Shown here in pieces: positions 14,782 through 42,775 of a stretch of 64,000 nucleotides of DNA; position 1 is the first letter of the stretch, and every line of letters starts with the position of its first letter. The stretch lies in assembly GCA_013343275.1 (NCBI GenBank), contig CP046106.1:416001-480000 (forward strand). The letters are read 5' to 3'. Both the position numbers and the translations under genes were made by a program. The notes beneath the pieces are model-generated. The model saw nothing but the letters and a program-made list of their open reading frames with translations. It ran no database searches and was not told where the DNA came from. The stretch comes from Candidatus Nanohaloarchaea archaeon. GTDB lineage: Archaea > Nanohalarchaeota > Nanosalinia > Nanosalinales > Nanosalinaceae.

Positions 14782-16143
14782 CTAACCTGAATAGGTATAG
14801 GCCAGATCCAGGATCTTCTGCTCCTCGAAGTGATCACCAACGATGTGAAGGCCTGTTGGCATACCCTGGCTTTCTCCGTTAGGTATAGATATCATCGGCA
14901 TGCCAGCAAGGTTAGGCCCTACTGTCAGAGTATCCATCGCGTAGATTTCTTCAGGAGCCATTGATTCGGCCTCTTCGATCTTGGGGGCGATGTTCGGCAT
15001 TGAAGGAGAGATAACAGCATCGTACTCCTCAAACACTTCCTTGTACTGGTCGATTATCTTCTGTCGGACCTTCGCGGCCTTGATATAGTATTCATCCCTG
15101 TAGCCTGCCTGACGGGTATAGGTTCCTAGAAGAATCCTTCTCTTAGCCTCCTCTCCAAACCCTTCTGATCTAACCTCTGAGAAGTATTCATTGAAGTCAT
15201 CGAAATCTTCAGGATCCATCTCCATGCCGTAACGCATGCCGGACATCTTTGCCAGGTTAGTCGAGGCCTCGCTCATCGCAAGAACATAGTAAGCTGGTAC
15301 TGCAACGTCTGCCGAGAGAAGCGGCATATCAACTTCCTCAACAGTAAAGCCTTTCTCCTCCAGCTCCTGGATAGAGGCCCTGAAGTTCTCCATTACTCCT
15401 TCCTCAACTCCTTCAAGTTCAAGGTACTGTTCTGGCACTGCAATTTTGCCTTCTGCTTCGGAAAGGTTCTCGGAGTACTCAGGTACTTCCTTGCTTGACA
15501 TTGTCTGGTCGTTCTCATCTTCACCGGCGATTACCTCCAGACCTTTTGCAACTCCAAAGACTGATTTGGCAAGGACTCCAATCTTGTCAAGAGAGTTAGC
15601 GTAATCTACAAGGCCATAGCGAGAGACTCTTCCATAGGTCGGTGTGATACCGACTACACCATTGTATGCTGCAGGATTGGTGATCGAGCCTCCGGTTGAT
15701 TCTCCCAGAGAGATCAATGGCTGATCCATTGCTGCGACAACTGCTCCAGCTCCTCCAGAAGAACCTCCAACAACTCTTTCTTCATCGTGAGGATTTCTCG
15801 GCGTGTCGAACGCACAGTTAGTGGAGAAAGTTCCAAAGCCGAATTCGTCCTGATTGGTTTTTCCGTAGAAACGGGCGCCGGCCTCCTTCAATCTTTCAAC
15901 TACTGTAGCATCGAATACCGGCCTGTAGTCCTCCAAGATCTTGCTGCCTGCAGAAGTAGTAACTCCTTCAGTACAGATAGCATCCTTCACCACGAAAGGG
16001 ATATTCTGCAGAGAGCCTTCTTTCGTCTCTCCCTGCTTGATCTCTCTCATGAAGCTCAGTTCTTCGTTTCTATCCTGGAGCTCCTGGTAGAATTTTTCGT
16101 GATCTATTTCTTTCTCGCCTTTCAGAACTTTTTCCACAGTCAT
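14782..16143 (-). CDS. gatA: Asp/Glu-tRNA amidotransferase subunit A
   Basis: Amidase signature GGSSGG, ESTGGSI, GFGEEAKRRILLGTY. Confidence 0.96.
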   Translation of the reverse strand: MTVEKVLKGEKEIDHEKFYQELQDRNEELSFMREIKQGETKEGSLQNIPFVVKDAICTEGVTTSAGSKILEDYRPVFDATVVERLKEAGARFYGKTNQDEFGFGTFSTNCAFDTPRNPHDEERVVGGSSGGAGAVVAAMDQPLISLGESTGGSITNPAAYNGVVGITPTYGRVSRYGLVDYANSLDKIGVLAKSVFGVAKGLEVIAGEDENDQTMSSKEVPEYSENLSEAEGKIAVPEQYLELEGVEEGVMENFRASIQELEEKGFTVEEVDMPLLSADVAVPAYYVLAMSEASTNLAKMSGMRYGMEMDPEDFDDFNEYFSEVRSEGFGEEAKRRILLGTYTRQAGYRDEYYIKAAKVRQKIIDQYKEVFEEYDAVISPSMPNIAPKIEEAESMAPEEIYAMDTLTVGPNLAGMPMISIPNGESQGMPTGLHIVGDHFEEQKILDLAYTYSG

Positions 16144-16194
16144 AGCCAGAGGTTAGGTGAAGAATCTTAAAAATTCAATCTTCAGCACGCCGCA

Positions 16195-16320
16195 CTAATC
16201 TCTCCTAACACAGTCATCGACATGGAAGTTTTTCCCACATGAAGTACATTTCGGAAATAGAGGCCTGTAACCCTGGAAACTCATTTCTCCTCCGCACTCA
16301 GGACATTCCAGATTCATCAT
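16195..16320 (-). CDS. 41-aa CPxCG zinc-finger microprotein (not in ORF track)
   Basis: Hand translation MMNLECPECGGEMSFQGYRPLFPKCTSCGKNFHVDDCVRRD; ATG overlaps upstream TAA (TAATG). Confidence 0.8.
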   Translation of the reverse strand: MMNLECPECGGEMSFQGYRPLFPKCTSCGKNFHVDDCVRRD

Positions 16321-16808
16321 TAATCCTCCAGAAGATGGAACTCTATCTCCTCTTCCTTGGTATCAAGTACGGCTACGGAGAAGCCTTCTTCCTGGCCCGG
16401 CAGCCTGATACCACCAGGATTTAACTCCACAGTCTGGCCATCCTCATCGAGCTTTCTCTCGTGGGTGTGGCCCCGGAAAACATAGTCGTAGTTCTTCTCG
16501 ACGAGGCCTTCCACTATCCCCTCTTCGGTTCCATGGTATACTGCTATCTCAAGGTCTTCGATTTCCAGCTCTATTATATTATTGTGGAACTCTCCGAACT
16601 GCTGAACCGTAGATTTCAGGTTCCATTCGCCGTCGTTGTTCCCTCTTACGGCGTAGAAATCAAAACCCCGATCGAAAAGCTCTGCCGTGAACGGCGCGAT
16701 CATATCGCCGCAGTGAACCACTTTTTCCACACGATCATCGAAGAAATCAGCAGCCTTGTCGGCAAGTTCAATACTGTCGTGGGTGTCGGATACTATGCCT
16801 ATTTTCAT
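16320..16808 (-). CDS. Metallophosphoesterase (YfcE/MJ0936 family)
   Basis: SDTH, HCGD, GNND, HG, GHTH, NPG motifs. Confidence 0.92.
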   Translation of the reverse strand: MKIGIVSDTHDSIELADKAADFFDDRVEKVVHCGDMIAPFTAELFDRGFDFYAVRGNNDGEWNLKSTVQQFGEFHNNIIELEIEDLEIAVYHGTEEGIVEGLVEKNYDYVFRGHTHERKLDEDGQTVELNPGGIRLPGQEEGFSVAVLDTKEEEIEFHLLED

Positions 16809-16817
16809 CAGTACAGT

Positions 16818-17096
16818 TTAAGCGCTTGGGCCTTTGAAATGGCCTTCTTCCTCGTTTTCCGTGTTGCGGAATACTTCCTCTCTGTCAAGAGTCTCCTCTT
16901 CCTCGTCTTTACGAGTCTTCGAGTCGACATCTACAGGATGGAAGGCAGGTTCTACATCCTCTGTATCTACCTCATCAAGTGATGAGAACTTCTCAAGGAT
17001 GTTATCGAAATCCTCCTTGAACTCCTCGGCCTCACCATCTTCAAGTTTGATCCTTGCATTGTCGGCCACCTTCTTTACTGTTTCAATATCTACCAT
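16818..17096 (-). CDS. gatC: Asp/Glu-tRNA amidotransferase subunit C
   Basis: VKKVADNARIKL, LDEVDTEDVEP, GHFKGP; near gatA. Confidence 0.92.
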   Translation of the reverse strand: MVDIETVKKVADNARIKLEDGEAEEFKEDFDNILEKFSSLDEVDTEDVEPAFHPVDVDSKTRKDEEEETLDREEVFRNTENEEEGHFKGPSA

Positions 17097-17287
17097 AGGT
17101 ATTTATTCCGGTTGAAACTTTTAGAAGAATATCGATGAAACACAGCCACAACCTCTATTTCATGTGGAGGGCTGATTATTGAGAGATTTCAGAACCTGTA
17201 AGGCTATTTTAGAGATAATATGAACGGTCGTGAACAATCAGTGTTAACTGCGAGCGAACATCGATTGTATGGCTAAATGGCCGAAGA

Positions 17288-17295
17288 TTTATAAA
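17288..17295 (+). promoter_or_regulatory. Putative TATA box upstream of structured ftsZ leader
   Basis: TTTATAAA preceded by purine-rich BRE-like CGAAGA. Confidence 0.5.
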
Positions 17296-17324
17296 CAAGC
17301 TTAGAAAATGTTAGAGTATAAGAC

Positions 17325-17482
17325 TTGATCGTTGTTCGTGGTGGGACACGAACTGGGATCGATCGTTTCAAACTCATTGGGAAGTGAGTTTGAGTCAGAC
17401 TTGAATTGGGAAGTTCAAGTCGGGAATCGTATTATCGAAACATGTTGGGAATTTGGTTCAATTAGTTCTATCGTAGAATTAG
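17325..17482 (+). ncRNA. Putative structured RNA (leader or sRNA) with repeated GGGA-loop hairpins
   Basis: Hairpins 17334-17353, 17368-17393, 17398-17421; six YGGGA motifs. Confidence 0.55.
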
Positions 17483-17535
17483 CTTTGCCGCTTTAAAAAG
17501 GTTAGGTTAAGCCTTGCCGGGGGCGGGTCAACACA

Positions 17536-18615
17536 ATGGAATCTATAATCGACAACACGCCAGACTCTCAGAATGAAGGCCAGAATGCCACAGAAAATCT
17601 TGATGATGTAAAAGATGCTAGAATCCTAGTAGTAGGAATAGGAGGAGCTGGCAACAACCAGGTAACCAGAATCCAGAACAAAGAAGTAGAAGGAGCTGAT
17701 ACTGTCGCTATCAACACAGACAAGCAGCACCTAGAGATGTCCTCCGCCGACAGAAAAATACTTGTAGGAAAAGACCTGACACGAGGTCTCGGAGCAGGAG
17801 GAAAACCTGAGAAAGGCGCTCGCTCCGCTGAAGAAAACAGGGCCGAACTAAGAAATCTATTCAAAGAAGCCGACATGGTCTTCCTCACCGCAGGAATGGG
17901 AGGAGGAACAGGTACAGGCGCAGCCCCAGTACTTGCAGAGATCGCAAAGAAAGAGGACTGCATCGTAATCGGAACAGTCACAATGCCATTCAGTATTGAA
18001 GGCGCACGAATGAGCAAGGCAGAAGACGGCCTCTACAAACTAAGACAACATGTCGACACAGCAATCGTAATTGAAAACGACAAACTACTTGATATCGCAG
18101 GCGACATGCCTCTCGACCAGGCATTCGGAGTAGCTGACGAACTGATCACAACAATGATCAAGGGAATCACAGAGACAATCTCCAAGCCTTCACTCGTCAA
18201 CCTGGACTATGCAGATGTCCAGGCAGTAATGAACGAGGGCGGAGTCGCAGTAGTCGGATACGGAGAGTCAGATACAAACAATAAAGGAAAAGAAGCGATC
18301 CATGAGGCCCTCTCCAATCCATTGCTCGATGTAGAGTTCGACGGAGCAAACGGAGCACTACTCCATGTTGCAGGAGGCGAGGACCTGACACTCAACGAGA
18401 TCAACGACGTCGGCCAGCTGGTAACGGACAAGCTCGACAATCAGGCCCAGGTAATCTGGGGCGCACGAATCCGCGACGACCTGCAAGGAAAACTACAGGT
18501 AATCTCAATTATCACAGGCGTGAAATCACCTTACGTCCTGGGAGAACTTGAGGAAGACGAAGAGACCGAGGTAAAAGGAGACGTAAACGACCTCGGACTT
18601 GAAGTCATGAAATAA
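17536..18615 (+). CDS. ftsZ: Cell division GTPase FtsZ (FtsZ2-like)
   Basis: GIGGAGNN, AINTD, GGGTGTG, NLDYAD. Confidence 0.97.
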   Translation: MESIIDNTPDSQNEGQNATENLDDVKDARILVVGIGGAGNNQVTRIQNKEVEGADTVAINTDKQHLEMSSADRKILVGKDLTRGLGAGGKPEKGARSAEENRAELRNLFKEADMVFLTAGMGGGTGTGAAPVLAEIAKKEDCIVIGTVTMPFSIEGARMSKAEDGLYKLRQHVDTAIVIENDKLLDIAGDMPLDQAFGVADELITTMIKGITETISKPSLVNLDYADVQAVMNEGGVAVVGYGESDTNNKGKEAIHEALSNPLLDVEFDGANGALLHVAGGEDLTLNEINDVGQLVTDKLDNQAQVIWGARIRDDLQGKLQVISIITGVKSPYVLGELEEDEETEVKGDVNDLGLEVMK

Positions 18616-18619
18616 ACTC

Positions 18620-18737
18620 GAAAGCCGGAGGCTTTCTGGGTTACCAGAAATTCTCCAAATTTCGAAAAGGCTGGAGATCGGAGATCTTCTGCTTCACAGA
18701 AAATCTCTGATTTTCGGCAAGGAGGCCACCCGGCCTC
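18620..18737. repeat. Cluster of short triloop palindromes (REP-like)
   Basis: GAAAGCC-GGA-GGCTTTC, GGAGATC-GGA-GATCTTC, GAAAATC-TCT-GATTTTC. Confidence 0.6.
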
Positions 18738-18740
18738 ATT

Positions 18741-18910
18741 AAACCTATATTACGGAGGAAGGCCTCTACTCGAAAACCCCTCCCCCCCCCTTCGACAGGC
18801 TTTCCTCCCTAAAAACCTATATTTCAACAGGCGAAGGCTACCAAGACCTCCACGCCACCGACAAAAACCCCTCCCCCCCTTTGTTTTGGCGTGGAGGCCA
18901 GCCTTTCGCC
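18741..18910 (+). ncRNA. Putative structured RNA: two units of AAACCTATATT plus long hairpin with AACCCCTCCCCCCC loop
   Basis: Hairpins 18754-18808 and 18830-18910 have different stems but the same C-rich loop and the same 11-nt leader. Confidence 0.55.
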
Positions 18911-18982
18911 ACTTATTCTCAATTATTTCTTTTCGATCGCTAAACCAAAAAGTTCTTTACAGTTAACAAACAAAACAGAGCT

Positions 18983-19486
18983 ATGAAAGCTGAGAACGAG
19001 GCTATTCTTGGTCTTTCAGGCCTTCTAGCCTTGCTGGTTCCGGTAACTTTCTACACTACTGAAACACCGCTACTGGCAGGACTTTTCTCACTGGCCTCAC
19101 TTGGCATATACAGGTACTGTGACAGAAAGATGGCTATGTCCAGCCTAACCGACCTGGACGAGCTGAAAAGCCTTTATGTTCAGAAAGGTATAGAGGCCAT
19201 TATACTTCTGACTGCTGTTGCATCGCCGGTAGTTGATAAAAATGTCGCGGTATCCGTGCTCCTACTGGTTTTTGTAAGCGAAACCATTCGTGAAGAGGCA
19301 GAAGCTGTCTCGAAGACCGTACTGACATCTTACGCAGGGTTCGAGATCAGGGCAGCAGTCCTAGGTATAGGCATGGTCTTCCAGTCAGTGGCAAGTTACA
19401 GCCTGTTCTATGCGCTTGTTCTGGTAGGAGTCCTGACTGTCTACGAGCTGGGAAGAACTACTCATATCAGCCTGGAAAATATCTGA
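18983..19486 (+). CDS. Membrane protein, possibly degenerate CDP-alcohol phosphatidyltransferase
   Basis: TM pattern; SETIREEAE and GFEIR resemble SYVRARAE and GRxER; catalytic DxxDG..AR absent. Confidence 0.6.
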   Translation: MKAENEAILGLSGLLALLVPVTFYTTETPLLAGLFSLASLGIYRYCDRKMAMSSLTDLDELKSLYVQKGIEAIILLTAVASPVVDKNVAVSVLLLVFVSETIREEAEAVSKTVLTSYAGFEIRAAVLGIGMVFQSVASYSLFYALVLVGVLTVYELGRTTHISLENI

Positions 19487-19562
19487 AGTAGATGGCTTTT
19501 GAGGCGGCTAAATTTTCCTGGCAGCCTCAGGTATTTAATTTTTCACTGCTCCTTCATTAATT

Positions 19563-20066
19563 ATGAAGGCACCAATATGTAACGTCTGCTTGAAGAGCGA
19601 TGTGCTCTGCAGCAGTTGCAAGGAGAAGTACGAGAACGGTGAAATATCCGATCTGGAAATCGAAATCTCAAGGACACTACAGGATTTAAGCAACGAATAC
19701 GGCTCGCTTAGAGACTCAGAAATCAAACACGCATACGACACAGAAAACGTCGTAGTAATCGTCACAGCAGAGGGAGACGGAGCCAAAGTAGTTGGAAGAA
19801 GCGGAGACATCGTCAAGAAACTCGCAGACGAAATCGGCAAATCAATCAGAGTAGTTGAAAAAAGCGAAGACGACAAAGAAGTCATCAAAGGCCTGCTCAG
19901 CCCTGCTGAAATAGAATCAATCAACACAGTTTTCAGCCCTGACGGCCAGTACAAGAAGATCGTCGTCGACGAAGACTACGAAGGAAAGATCAACCTCTCC
20001 AACGAAGAGTTCGAAGAACTAATCGAACAGATCACAGGGGAGAAGTACGAGCTCTCCTTCGAATAA
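19563..20066 (+). CDS. NusA-like KH-domain protein with N-terminal zinc finger
   Basis: CNVC..LCSSC; KH loop VVGRSG; IGKSIRVVE. Confidence 0.85.
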   Translation: MKAPICNVCLKSDVLCSSCKEKYENGEISDLEIEISRTLQDLSNEYGSLRDSEIKHAYDTENVVVIVTAEGDGAKVVGRSGDIVKKLADEIGKSIRVVEKSEDDKEVIKGLLSPAEIESINTVFSPDGQYKKIVVDEDYEGKINLSNEEFEELIEQITGEKYELSFE

Positions 20067-20087
20067 AAAACCTCTTTCTTTTCCCTT

Positions 20088-20621
20088 TCACTTTCTCATA
20101 ATTAGACTGGATCTCTCCCTGGAAAGAATATCGATATCTTCAGGGCCAAGAACACTTTCTCCAGCAGTCTCAAATCCGAGGCTGCGGTAGAAATTGACAG
20201 CATTTTCATTGTCCTCAAATACTTCCACCACAAAGCTGGAGAAACCTTCCGGAATCCGGGCAAAGGCCTCCTCCGCCAATGCAGTACCAACTCCCTGCCG
20301 CCAGTAATCAGGGTGAACAAACATCGAACGTAGCTGGACCTCGTCTTCATCTACAAAAGAGTCTGCCTCGCCGTTCCAGGCCATACGTATCCTGCCAACC
20401 ACTTTACCGTCTTTCTCAGCTACAAGAACAAACGTCCCATCTTTCTCAGTTCTTTTCCTTATATCTTCCTCGGATTTATGGAACTCAGAACTCTGTCGAG
20501 CCACCTCCACCTCTTCAGAGGTCAGAAAGCTTTCCTGGCCCTGAATCCATGATTTCCTGCCCAGCTCCTCCAGGTCCTCAGTGTCGGAAGGCCTGACCTC
20601 TCTGATTTTCAACTCCATCAT
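20088..20621 (-). CDS. GNAT N-acetyltransferase
   Basis: FVHPDYWRQGVGT, NENAVNFYRSLGF. Confidence 0.92.
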   Translation of the reverse strand: MMELKIREVRPSDTEDLEELGRKSWIQGQESFLTSEEVEVARQSSEFHKSEEDIRKRTEKDGTFVLVAEKDGKVVGRIRMAWNGEADSFVDEDEVQLRSMFVHPDYWRQGVGTALAEEAFARIPEGFSSFVVEVFEDNENAVNFYRSLGFETAGESVLGPEDIDILSRERSSLIMRK

Positions 20622-20658
20622 GATTGTTTTAATTAATCTCACGGTTTAAATCAACTCT

Positions 20659-22467
20659 ATGAGCACAGAGAAAAACGCAAAGAACTTCATCGTTGTAATC
20701 GACCAGGAGAAGATAGAACCTGACCTGGCGAAGGAGACCGTCATAAAGTACGATCCATTGAACAGGTCAGGAAAAGAAGGCGGATTCCGCCTCGATGACG
20801 AAGGCCACCTCCACATCGACAACGAAAACGTCATGGAGGCCCACAAGATGGCGATCAACAAGTACCCATACGACGGAGCCATCCAGCTAATCCGACTGGA
20901 CAGAGAGTTCGGAGAAAAAATCCACCAGTACGGGGAAAACGCATTCAGACTCTACGGCCTACCAGAACCAAAAGAAGGCCGGGTAACAGGAATCCTCGGA
21001 AGAAACGGGATCGGAAAATCCACGGCCCTGAGAATACTTGCAGGCGACATAAAGCCAAACCTGGGCCAGTTCGAAGAAGAACCCGACTGGAGCGAAATAA
21101 AGAAAGAATACCGTGGAACAGGCCTCCAAACCCATTTCAACAAACTCGCAGAAGGAGAAGTTACCTCGGCATTCAAGCCTCAGCAGGTCGATAAGATCCC
21201 TGAGTACCACGAAGGGACTGTAGAGGATCTTCTGGAGATAGAGGATGAACGAGATGTTATCGGGGAAGTTGCAGAGAAGACCGATATCTCACATCTTATG
21301 GACAGAGAGCTCGACGAGCTTTCCGGCGGAGAGCTGCAGAGAGTAGCTATTGCATCGACAATGGTGAAAGACGCAGATCTCTACATGTTCGACGAGCCAT
21401 CCTCATTCCTGGACGTAAAACAGCGCTTGAATATTGGAGAGGCCATCCACGCACTTTCGGAGGATGCAGCTGTACTGGTCGTAGAGCACGATCTGGCGAC
21501 GCTCGATCTCGTATCTGACGCAGTACATGTCTTTCATGGAGAGGCCGGAGCCTACGGAATGGTATCGAACGCTTTCTCGACAAGAGAAGGGATAAACCAG
21601 TACCTCGACGGCTACCTCAAAACACATAATTTACAGATCAGAAGCGAATCCATCGACTTCAAACGGACCAAAAGAAGCCAGGTGGAGAAGAAGGCCTCCG
21701 TCTTCGAGTACCCAGAGCTAGCGAAAAGCTTTGGACAAGGAAAGTTCTCACTGGAAGTTGACTCAGGAGTGCTCCACGAGGAGGAGGTTCTCGGAATATT
21801 CGGAGAGAACGGCCTCGGAAAAACTACCTTTGCAAAAATGCTGGCCGGCGCACTGGAGCCAGATCAGGGCCAGTCCCCTGAAGTCGATCTCTCATTCAAA
21901 CCGCAGTACTTGGAATCTCAGGATGCAAACGTTGAGGCCGTAATTTCTCAGCATGTCAACCCTGAGAACAAGAAGTTCAAGAACCGTATTGCAGAACCCC
22001 TCGGGATCGAAGATCTCTACGAGCAGAACATCAACGACCTATCCGGCGGAGAGTTACAGAAAGTGGGCGTCGCGATCTGTCTGTCCAGAAACGCAGACGT
22101 ATACGTACTGGACGAGCCATCGGCCTACCTCGATGTAGAATCAAGAGTGGAACTAGGGAGAGTGATAAAGAGGTTCGCACGGAAAACCGAGAAACCTGTC
22201 ATGGTAATCGATCACGACCTCATACTCCTAGACTATATCTCCGACAGAGGCCTTGTATTCGAGGGAGAGCCAGGAGTTGAAGGCTATGCAGATAATCCTT
22301 CGAAGATCGGAGAGGCTATGAACAAGTTCCTGAAACTCGTGGATCTGACATTCAGGAAGGATCCGGAAACCGGGAGACCTCGAGCCAACAAACCCGGCAG
22401 CCAGAAAGACAAGCAGCAGAGGAAAAAAGACGAGTTCTACGAGCAGAAAGCGGTGAAGAAAGAATGA
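20659..22467 (+). CDS. rli: Ribosome recycling ATPase ABCE1/Rli1, N-terminal domain lacking Fe-S cysteines
   Basis: HQYGENAFRLYGLP, two NBDs (GRNGIGKST, LSGGELQ, GENGLGKTT), TFRKD..GRPRANK..S.KD. Confidence 0.95.
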   Translation: MSTEKNAKNFIVVIDQEKIEPDLAKETVIKYDPLNRSGKEGGFRLDDEGHLHIDNENVMEAHKMAINKYPYDGAIQLIRLDREFGEKIHQYGENAFRLYGLPEPKEGRVTGILGRNGIGKSTALRILAGDIKPNLGQFEEEPDWSEIKKEYRGTGLQTHFNKLAEGEVTSAFKPQQVDKIPEYHEGTVEDLLEIEDERDVIGEVAEKTDISHLMDRELDELSGGELQRVAIASTMVKDADLYMFDEPSSFLDVKQRLNIGEAIHALSEDAAVLVVEHDLATLDLVSDAVHVFHGEAGAYGMVSNAFSTREGINQYLDGYLKTHNLQIRSESIDFKRTKRSQVEKKASVFEYPELAKSFGQGKFSLEVDSGVLHEEEVLGIFGENGLGKTTFAKMLAGALEPDQGQSPEVDLSFKPQYLESQDANVEAVISQHVNPENKKFKNRIAEPLGIEDLYEQNINDLSGGELQKVGVAICLSRNADVYVLDEPSAYLDVESRVELGRVIKRFARKTEKPVMVIDHDLILLDYISDRGLVFEGEPGVEGYADNPSKIGEAMNKFLKLVDLTFRKDPETGRPRANKPGSQKDKQQRKKDEFYEQKAVKKE

Positions 22468-42543: not shown

Positions 42544-42657
42544 TCAGAGGCATTCCTCATGGCATACGCCGTTTTCCTGCCTCTCCATGTCCTGATCGCT
42601 GTGTACAGCGTTACCACAGACTAGGCAAAAGCCTATCTGTTTTACAAGTTCTGGCAA
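42544..42657 (-). CDS. 37-aa zinc-binding microprotein (not in ORF track)
   Basis: TTG start after SD GGGGGAGGG; MPELVKQIGFCLVCGNAVHSDQDMERQENGVCHEECL (CxxC...HxxC). Confidence 0.7.
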   Translation of the reverse strand: MPELVKQIGFCLVCGNAVHSDQDMERQENGVCHEECL

Positions 42658-42775
42658 AAATTCCCTCCCCCGATGTAAAAATCATGTAGGAAGAATTATA
42701 ATTTCGATTGTAGCTGACACCAAACGTTCAGGAGATCAACCAGAGTTAAAAATTTCTCAAGGCCTTCTTACCTGT

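Follow-up and report, generated by a model that had tools for sequence, protein, structure and literature searches.

Conserved hairpins with C-rich loops downstream of ftsZ in Nanohaloarchaeota: a candidate antisense element for G-rich translation-initiation regions

The regulatory RNAs RsaE/RoxS and RNAIII of the Firmicutes present C-rich UCCC loops on several hairpins, and these loops pair with G-rich Shine-Dalgarno (SD) regions. In the excerpts of the reports on which we rely, a UCCCC motif in the Staphylococcus aureus icaR mRNA's 3' untranslated region (3' UTR) pairs with that mRNA's 5' UTR (PMC3868564), and the archaeal small RNAs (sRNAs) sRNA154 and sRNA41 of Methanosarcina mazei, which are directed against ribosome-binding sites (anti-RBS), offer a precedent in another domain of life (PMC5867862). 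Here we describe two hairpins with long C-rich loops that follow the division gene ftsZ at positions 18741-18910 of a 64,000-nucleotide stretch of DNA (hereafter the window; contig CP046106.1 of assembly GCA_013343275.1, positions 416,001 to 480,000) from a Candidatus Nanohaloarchaea archaeon. The source genome is a single contig of 915,886 bp with a G+C content of 47%, and the FtsZ protein of the window is 82-89% identical to that of named Nanohaloarchaeota such as Nanosalina and Nanohalobium. We tentatively read the twin hairpins as the local form of a conserved ftsZ 3'-UTR RNA element of the Nanohaloarchaeota, whose C-loops would act as antisense seeds on G-rich initiation regions, with the mRNA of a zinc-ribbon microprotein as the best candidate; judged from sequence comparison, this is quite possible, if a little short of probable.

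The sequence following ftsZ is exactly as the initial annotation gave it, and direct inspection and folding both bear out the twin strong hairpins with C-rich loops. When a 180-nt region is folded it forms two hairpins, each exposing its C-run unpaired in the apical loop, and its minimum free energy (-63.5 kcal/mol) lies far below that of shuffled sequences (-33.2 +/- 3.6 kcal/mol; z = -8.5), none of 200 shuffles being equally stable. The C-runs are C4-T-C9 in hairpin 1 and C4-T-C7 in hairpin 2, and the two hairpins share an identical stretch of 16 nt, AAAACCCCTCCCCCCC, at 18773-18788 and 18864-18879, which occurs nowhere else in the 916-kb genome. Repeated as well are AACCCCTCCCCCCC, at 18775-18788 and 18866-18879 (two matches at up to two mismatches, with 0.38 expected), and the AU-rich motif AAACCTATATT (three matches at up to one mismatch, with 0.92 expected); in both cases 5 of 100 shuffles reach the observed number. 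On the plus strand of the whole genome CCCCTCCCC occurs three times, twice in this element, which also holds two of the genome's four runs of at least seven C, and a genome scan for further poly-C-loop hairpins found none comparable to the ftsZ 3' pair. The sequence CCCCUCCCCCCC, located 160-265 nt past the ftsZ stop codon, includes CCUCC, and since the 16S rRNA ends in ...GAUCACCUCCA at its 3' end, the loops hold an anti-SD core. Scanning of positions 16000-21000 against Rfam 15, at E-values up to 10, gave no relevant match over 18741-18910; the sole overlap was a chance match to a Na+ riboswitch on the minus strand (E 3.3, 17.5 bits against a cut-off of 40.5 bits). A housekeeping RNA was also considered and rejected, the signal recognition particle RNA and RNase P RNA both sitting elsewhere (197313-197586 and 875212-875594).

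Conservation was followed in two sets, one of related species (36 ftsZ loci fetched, and 34 sources examined, namely 33 loci and the window) and one of 70 genomes of the phylum in which the coordinates of ftsZ orthologues and paralogues were mapped. At least one hairpin enclosing a C-run lies 3' of ftsZ in 33 of the 34 sources, and the single miss, L030, has a flank of only 137 nt that ends inside the motif. Absence of the element beside ftsZ had been named at the outset as grounds for abandoning the idea; the element is conserved there. Once four nested duplicates were dropped, 49 hairpins remained, 16 sources having two and 17 having one. Their stems show no relationship in either sequence or length; the loop reads (A)CACUCCCCUCCCCCC or nearly so, and the motif invariably sits on its 3' side. 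The stems could not be aligned, so that no consensus pairs emerged from a MAFFT/RNAalifold alignment of 18 hairpins, and counts were made per hairpin instead. The congener G053, with a 98% identical FtsZ, has kept the linker, the outer stem and the loop, the last with two more C, while the inner stem of hairpin 2 has been rebuilt by paired changes (CCUCCACGCC/GGCGUGGAGG versus CCCUCGGACC/GGUCUGAGGG). In unconstrained folds of the 3' regions of 42 loci, 140 of 175 runs of at least four C are unpaired.

Across the phylum, the exact 12-mer CTCCCCTCCCCC occurs 33 times in 29 of the 70 genomes, compared with 10 occurrences of the reversed control, and 30 of the 33 matches lie no more than 400 nt downstream of an ftsZ orthologue on the same strand; the three exceptions are in G007:C1, G018:C4 and the second contig of G052, which is 7% contaminated. 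The element is always found 3' of the ftsZ orthologue and never after the ftsZ paralogue, which is 50% identical. In the phylum's four other families 1-5 hairpins follow ftsZ, with loops of the UUCCCCC(C)ACA type, and two loci of other families carry AAACCTATATTAGG despite a different next gene (aIF5A in L043).

That the element is a plus-strand RNA has moderate support from the pattern of substitutions and folds. At strict stem positions, defined by two Watson-Crick pairs on each side, there are 23 G-T and 8 A-C combinations, and when the loop is held open, 30 hairpins give the better fold on the plus strand against 18 on the minus strand (p = 0.035). Unconstrained folds of the minus strand are confounded by the G-rich loop, and RY-reduced (purine/pyrimidine), strand-neutral folding with every stem pair counted is uninformative, with equal numbers of G-T (116) and A-C (110); the strict-position count alone discriminated between the strands. 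Co-transcription with ftsZ is the simplest reading. A promoter of its own was considered for the element and rejected as unlikely, because CTATATT-type hexamers are unenriched at promoter positions (0.6-2.5-fold, against 10-19-fold for the top TTTAAA/TAAAAA-type words), because species differ in how far the AU-rich motif lies from the C-run (17 to 55 nt) and because the motif overlaps the ftsZ stop codon in several of them. No canonical TATA box lies between the ftsZ stop and the C-loop hairpins, and a T-rich tract comes after the last of them, both of which favour the plus strand; variants of the AU-rich motif (AAAAnnATATT...) precede the hairpins in relatives, including those of another family (L040, L041). 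The promoters of this genome have boxes of the TTTAAA/TTTATAAA type centred about 30 nt before the start codon, so most of its mRNAs are probably leaderless, as in haloarchaea; GGAGG is found upstream of just 44 of 766 long open reading frames (ORFs). Genome-wide, the A/T-rich TATA signal peaks 30-31 nt before start codons.

Of the roles that the initial annotation had suggested for the loops, that of an anti-SD RNA acting in trans on the small ORF at 42544-42657 has come out as the best supported, on the strength of a conserved protein, an invariably present G-tract and cognate complementarity. The G-rich tract GGGGGAGGGAATTTTT ahead of this ORF is present on the minus strand as described. 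Matches to the encoded microprotein occur in 43 of 50 genomes of the family, and a G-rich tract stands directly before the start codon, often UUG, CUG or AUU, in all 16 of the orthologues compared (e.g. GGGGGAGGG, GGGGGAAGGGG, GGGGGUAGGGGG). Predicted duplexes between the start region and the ftsZ 3' UTR of the same genome range from -22.8 to -35.4 kcal/mol in 15 of the 16, the exception being G056 (-16.3 kcal/mol), where the start is uncertain. These duplexes map to the C-loops and reach into species-specific flanks, as with the 14 perfect pairs in G057 (CUGCAAAUCCCCCU), the 12 perfect pairs in G033 (GGGGGAAGGGG against a loop with CCCCUUCCCCC) and the pairing of GUGAGGGGG with CCCCCUCAC in G040; in the window, GGGGGAGGG plus UUUUU would pair with CCCUCCCCC plus AAAAA, in the loop of hairpin 2 and its A-rich flank, at -28.4 kcal/mol. 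Cognate combinations of the 16 orthologues have a mean longest perfect complement of 9.1 nt, and re-paired ones of 7.8 nt; uncorrected for relatedness, none of 20,000 permutations reaches the observed sum of lengths, and p is 0.026 when energies are compared instead. Of the genome's 42 non-self G-rich sites, that of the microprotein comes fourth and is the best of those at a start codon, the top-pairing one being an origin recognition box (ORB; see below). A general anti-SD regulon did not emerge, with few of the 42 sites at plausible starts and, on a stricter list of G-runs, 3 of 35 non-self sites preceding an ORF of at least 60 aa. The microprotein itself has a weak match to DUF2175. A paralogous zinc-ribbon microprotein of about 37 aa is encoded at 497,200-497,330 of the genome (plus strand); both paralogues have a G-rich tract and a non-AUG start, and no in-frame ATG, GTG or TTG lies near the strong G-tract of the second.

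Several observations weigh against an antisense role on the microprotein mRNA. The co-variation comes from few independent events (AA/UU in related genera, and the flanks in G057, G040 and G035), and by energy the cognate combination is the best of its row in 3 of the first 11 genomes. The G-tract could instead be a strong ribosome-binding site that offsets the weak start codons UUG, CUG and AUU, and the paralogue also has such a tract, GGGGGAGGTGG. With the 37-aa sequence, a very short query, the microprotein was not found in five genomes of three other families, and since those families keep the C-loops it cannot be the sole or ancestral partner. Lastly, because most genes look leaderless and because SD motifs in 5' UTRs of Haloferax do not drive initiation according to the part of the report considered here (PMC3986360), anti-SD logic may not transfer directly to this organism.

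If the C-loops do act as antisense seeds, each stem would hold its C-run (CCCCUCCCCCCC, with the anti-SD core CCUCC) single-stranded and available for pairing with G-rich translation-initiation regions. The G-tract and start codon of the microprotein mRNA would thereby be covered, and ribosome access blocked or altered. The G-run ahead of ftsZ (Table 1) is a possible second partner in this genus. Translation of the partner would in this way be tied to how much ftsZ mRNA is present, or how much of a stable 3' fragment released by cutting at the AU-rich motifs.

The loops could also act in cis only, folding onto their own ftsZ start, the array of GGG-loops upstream of it, or both, so that the mRNA is closed and FtsZ translation or decay is tuned, a reading that we consider rather unlikely. 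The GGGA loops that the initial annotation placed upstream of ftsZ are there, and the array is kept in nearly all families of the phylum, so that both flanks of ftsZ, G-loops 5' and C-loops 3', are preserved phylum-wide. Runs of at least three G number 3-9 in ftsZ leaders, against control means of 0.5-3.3. Across the 42 loci folded, 142 of 224 5' G-runs are unpaired, a number similar to that of unpaired C-runs on the 3' side, and the two counts correlate (rho 0.40, p 0.009, uncorrected for relatedness). Unlike most genes of this genome, ftsZ has at -47 a TTTAAAAA box, and its short leader contains a G-run, GGGGGCGGG, which is identical in the congener G053 and is the best cis partner of both loops; the duplex (-17.8 kcal/mol) comprises eight G-C pairs around one C/U mismatch, and a C-probe against the leader ranks 1 of 60 controls in the window (1/60 controls as good). 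That the 5' and 3' UTRs must cooperate in translational control in Haloferax, as stated in the part of the study on which we draw (PMC2636863), also fits a switch in cis. Further support comes from more distant relatives, for which we collected 40 loci with 55-63% identical FtsZ (Aenigmatarchaeota and unnamed metagenome-assembled genomes, MAGs); 28 were evaluated, 12 being left out for short flanks or an N-terminal extension hiding the start, and five more lacked a settable start codon, which leaves 23. In 7 of these 23, a CCCCUCC element a few nt past the stop codon shows complementarity of 11-16 bp (L113, L117) to the ftsZ start (GGAGGGG(G) and its flanks), each of the seven beating all 100 control windows, and the flanks of the pairing differ between species on both sides; the same complementarity is found in 3 of 10 loci of other nanohaloarchaeal families. 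From these comparisons, relatives do appear to have icaR-like 5'-3' pairing on the ftsZ mRNA, which may be ancestral. The family of the window behaves differently: the ftsZ start pairs with its own 3' UTR no better than control windows do (2 of 31 loci at 5/100 or less; 29/100 in the window), and the C-probe has a median rank of 28.5 of 60 against the leader. As for a kissing switch between the GGGA loops and the C-loops, as first proposed, the phylum-wide array and the similar numbers of G-loops and C-tracts speak for it; against it, each loop could contribute just 3-4 bp, most of the family shows duplex energies that do not improve on controls, and the 5' loops alternate between GGGA and GGGC among clades without compensatory change in the C-loops, so that we rejected loop-loop kissing while retaining the array as a possible second partner or decoy.

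A role in protein binding, in which the C-rich single strands would be bound by a poly(C)/CU-binding protein, for instance the neighbouring NusA-like KH protein, and control termination, stability or localisation of the ftsZ mRNA, seems to us unlikely. KH domains of the hnRNP K/PCBP type bind C-triplets and one archaeal NusA recognises CU-rich RNA; a sequence-specific single-strand binder would select just such a pattern, in which the stems are unrelated and the loops identical, and unstructured C-runs persist where hairpin 1 has been lost (L019-L023, L027, L031). The KH gene, which the initial annotation had linked to the loops, does lie downstream, at a distance of up to about 1.2 kb, in each of the 30 loci of this family whose flank is long enough, but that synteny is confined to the one family. 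In other families the C-loops are kept while aIF5A or other genes follow, and in L028 no KH gene occurs within 4 kb, so adjacency is weak evidence; nor would protein binding explain the species-specific complementarity to the microprotein start region. Still less probable is that the hairpins and T-tract merely terminate the transcript of ftsZ and protect it against 3' exonucleases, the C-runs being a by-product. In favour of this, stability of the stems is high, every relative's locus viewed has a T/C-rich tract after its last hairpin, at the same place as the oligo-T of the window, and the CCCCUCC element of Aenigmatarchaeota adjoins a T-run. Archaeal intrinsic termination, however, generally needs only oligo-T; the motif occurs at no other gene end of this genome, and a terminator leaves unexplained both the phylum-wide invariant loop on ever-changing stems and the fact that conserved G-tracts complement it. 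A DNA-level element on the G-rich strand (the 'G-string' of an origin ORB, a recombination site or a G-quadruplex) is extremely improbable. In its favour, the strand test is only moderate, given the equal all-pair count, and 18 of 48 hairpins have the better fold on the minus strand; against it stand the strict-position count, the constant orientation relative to ftsZ and the fixed loops on varying stems, a pattern of RNA display. The origin G-string, raised as an alternative in the initial annotation, was refuted: ORB-like boxes, TCCACAYGAAATCAGGGGG in two copies and a third variant, flank an AT-rich stretch at about 736,900-737,330 of the genome, 300 kb from ftsZ and beside orc1/cdc6 (735.7-736.9 kb), where the replication origin likely lies, and neither ORB boxes nor a GC-skew signal were found at ftsZ.

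The features of the locus and of its candidate partner are collected in Table 1.

Table 1. Coordinates, in the window, of ftsZ, the C-loop hairpins, their candidate partners and neighbouring features.
Feature	Position	Strand	Remarks
Upstream hairpin array, (U)UGGGA(A) loops	17335-17460	+	downstream of TTTATAAA box at 17288-17295
G-run GGGGGCGGG	17519-17527	+	9-17 nt before ftsZ AUG; best cis partner of both C-loops in this genome
ftsZ coding sequence	17536-18615	+	359 aa; Pfam Tubulin and FtsZ_C domains
Proximal part, putative ftsZ 3' UTR	18616-18740	+	small hairpins; without canonical TATA box
Small hairpin	18618-18665	+	putative ftsZ 3' UTR; sequence/inverted repeats
Small hairpin GAAAATC-TCT-GATTTTC	18699-18715	+	putative ftsZ 3' UTR
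Small hairpin GAGGCC-ACCC-GGCCTC	18722-18737	+	putative ftsZ 3' UTR
AU-rich motif AAACCTATATT, copy 1	18741-18751	+	foot of hairpin 1
Hairpin 1, about 20 bp	18750-18812	+	basal stem GGAGGAAGGCC / GGCTTTCCTCC
C-tract 1 CCCCTCCCCCCCCC	18777-18790	+	unpaired, apical loop of hairpin 1
AU-rich motif AAACCTATATT, copy 2	18813-18823	+	linker between hairpins; linker identical in congener G053
Hairpin 2	18830-18909	+	outer stem 18830-18839 / 18900-18909; inner stem 18845-18899
C-tract 2 CCCCTCCCCCCC	18868-18879	+	unpaired, apical loop of hairpin 2
T-rich tract after last hairpin	18913-18934	+	putative archaeal oligo-T termination region
ORF of 167 aa	18983-19486	+	no Pfam family; between C-loop hairpins and KH gene
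NusA-like KH gene	19563-20066		annotated NusA-like protein
Zinc-ribbon microprotein gene	42544-42657	-	37 aa, TTG start; CxxC...CxxxC; candidate trans target
G-tract GGGGGAGGG	42663-42671	-	5 nt before microprotein start; complements CCCUCCCCC of both loops

Some further observations concern the surroundings of these features. Upstream of ftsZ, the region 17288-17535 consists of the TTTATAAA box followed by 4-6 hairpins with UUGGGA(A) loops, for which no Rfam family was matched; the loops read UUGGGC in most relatives, UGGGA in this clade and UUGGGGGA/C in Aenigmatarchaeota, and a conserved 3' hairpin that comes after the array carries a second TATA-like TTTAAAAA (17492-17499) in its loop. Downstream, a CAGAAAATCTyyGATTTTCG hairpin (18695-18715) lies between the ftsZ stop and the C-loop hairpins, and is found in several, though not all, species (also L002, L004, L008, L026, L033 and L052). 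The 167-aa ORF probably encodes a membrane protein; L027 and L036 lack it, and there the KH gene comes next. Among the Aenigmatarchaeota-type genomes, CCCCTCCT is present in 10 copies in G070, two of them flanking ftsZ, and is telling in that genome only; as a signal in the other four of the five it was rejected, since it is there a common 8-mer with counts like those of the reversed control. Two contigs with an archaeal DPANN-type ftsZ (L062 and L099) are titled as bacterial MAGs (Colwellia polaris and Campylobacterales), probably through binning contamination.

A broader and more speculative extension, which we think doubtful, is that the ftsZ mRNA of DPANN archaea doubles as a regulatory RNA, its 5' G-loops and 3' C-loops and the start regions of ftsZ and the zinc-ribbon gene forming a multivalent G:C network, and that this circuit predates the split of Nanohaloarchaeota and Aenigmatarchaeota. 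If this were true, the amount and folding state of the transcript of a division gene would set the translation of its partners and of ftsZ itself. The RNA biology of DPANN symbionts is largely unexplored, and the element offers a concrete case with a seed, a candidate target and a second candidate, for which natural compensatory variants are on hand to guide mutagenesis. Confirmation of the antisense role would mean that regulation by 3' UTR-borne antisense sequences, known in a few bacteria, is ancient and conserved in archaea, and would link an uncharacterised microprotein to cell division.

Our literature search found no paper on the C-loop element and no description of a post-transcriptional regulator of archaeal ftsZ. 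The element is previously undescribed, and it resembles the icaR 3' UTR, the Firmicutes sRNAs with a C-rich seed and the anti-RBS sRNAs of Methanosarcina in mode while being a member of none of them. With RsaE/RoxS and RNAIII it shares a C-rich motif that is repeated, unpaired, in several hairpins and able to pair with G-rich SD sequences, and in the microprotein it has a conserved, co-varying G-rich candidate target start, though one that rests on few independent events uncorrected for relatedness. It differs from these sRNAs in having no sequence or Rfam kinship with them, so that the likeness is one of mode of action and not of membership, in its much longer C-runs (10-14 nt) and in probably lying on the 3' UTR of an mRNA, without a canonical promoter of its own. 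The Methanosarcina mazei sRNAs are likewise archaeal regulatory RNAs that mask ribosome-binding sites, but they are described, in the parts of the report used here, as intergenic, with their own promoters, and belong to the nitrogen metabolism of a methanogen (PMC5867862). The haloarchaeal system of Brenneis and Soppa (2009) is alike in that a 3' UTR sets translational regulation in cooperation with the 5' UTR; it concerns other genes and organisms, and the portion of that study considered here defines no sequence element or pairing (PMC2636863). With icaR, again as far as the cited portion of the report goes, the resemblance extends to a C-rich anti-SD-like motif (UCCCCUG in icaR, CCCCUCCCC here) in a long 3' UTR of what we infer to be a co-transcribed mRNA, to complementarity with a G-rich ribosome-binding region and to the proposed outcome, a block of initiation (PMC3868564). 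The ftsZ element differs from icaR in being archaeal (DPANN), in presenting its motif in 1-5 hairpin loops and in its phylum-wide conservation; and while the complementarity to the gene's own start that marks icaR reappears in 7 of the 23 sister-phylum loci, the best complement in the family of the window is the start region of another gene, in trans (PMC3868564).

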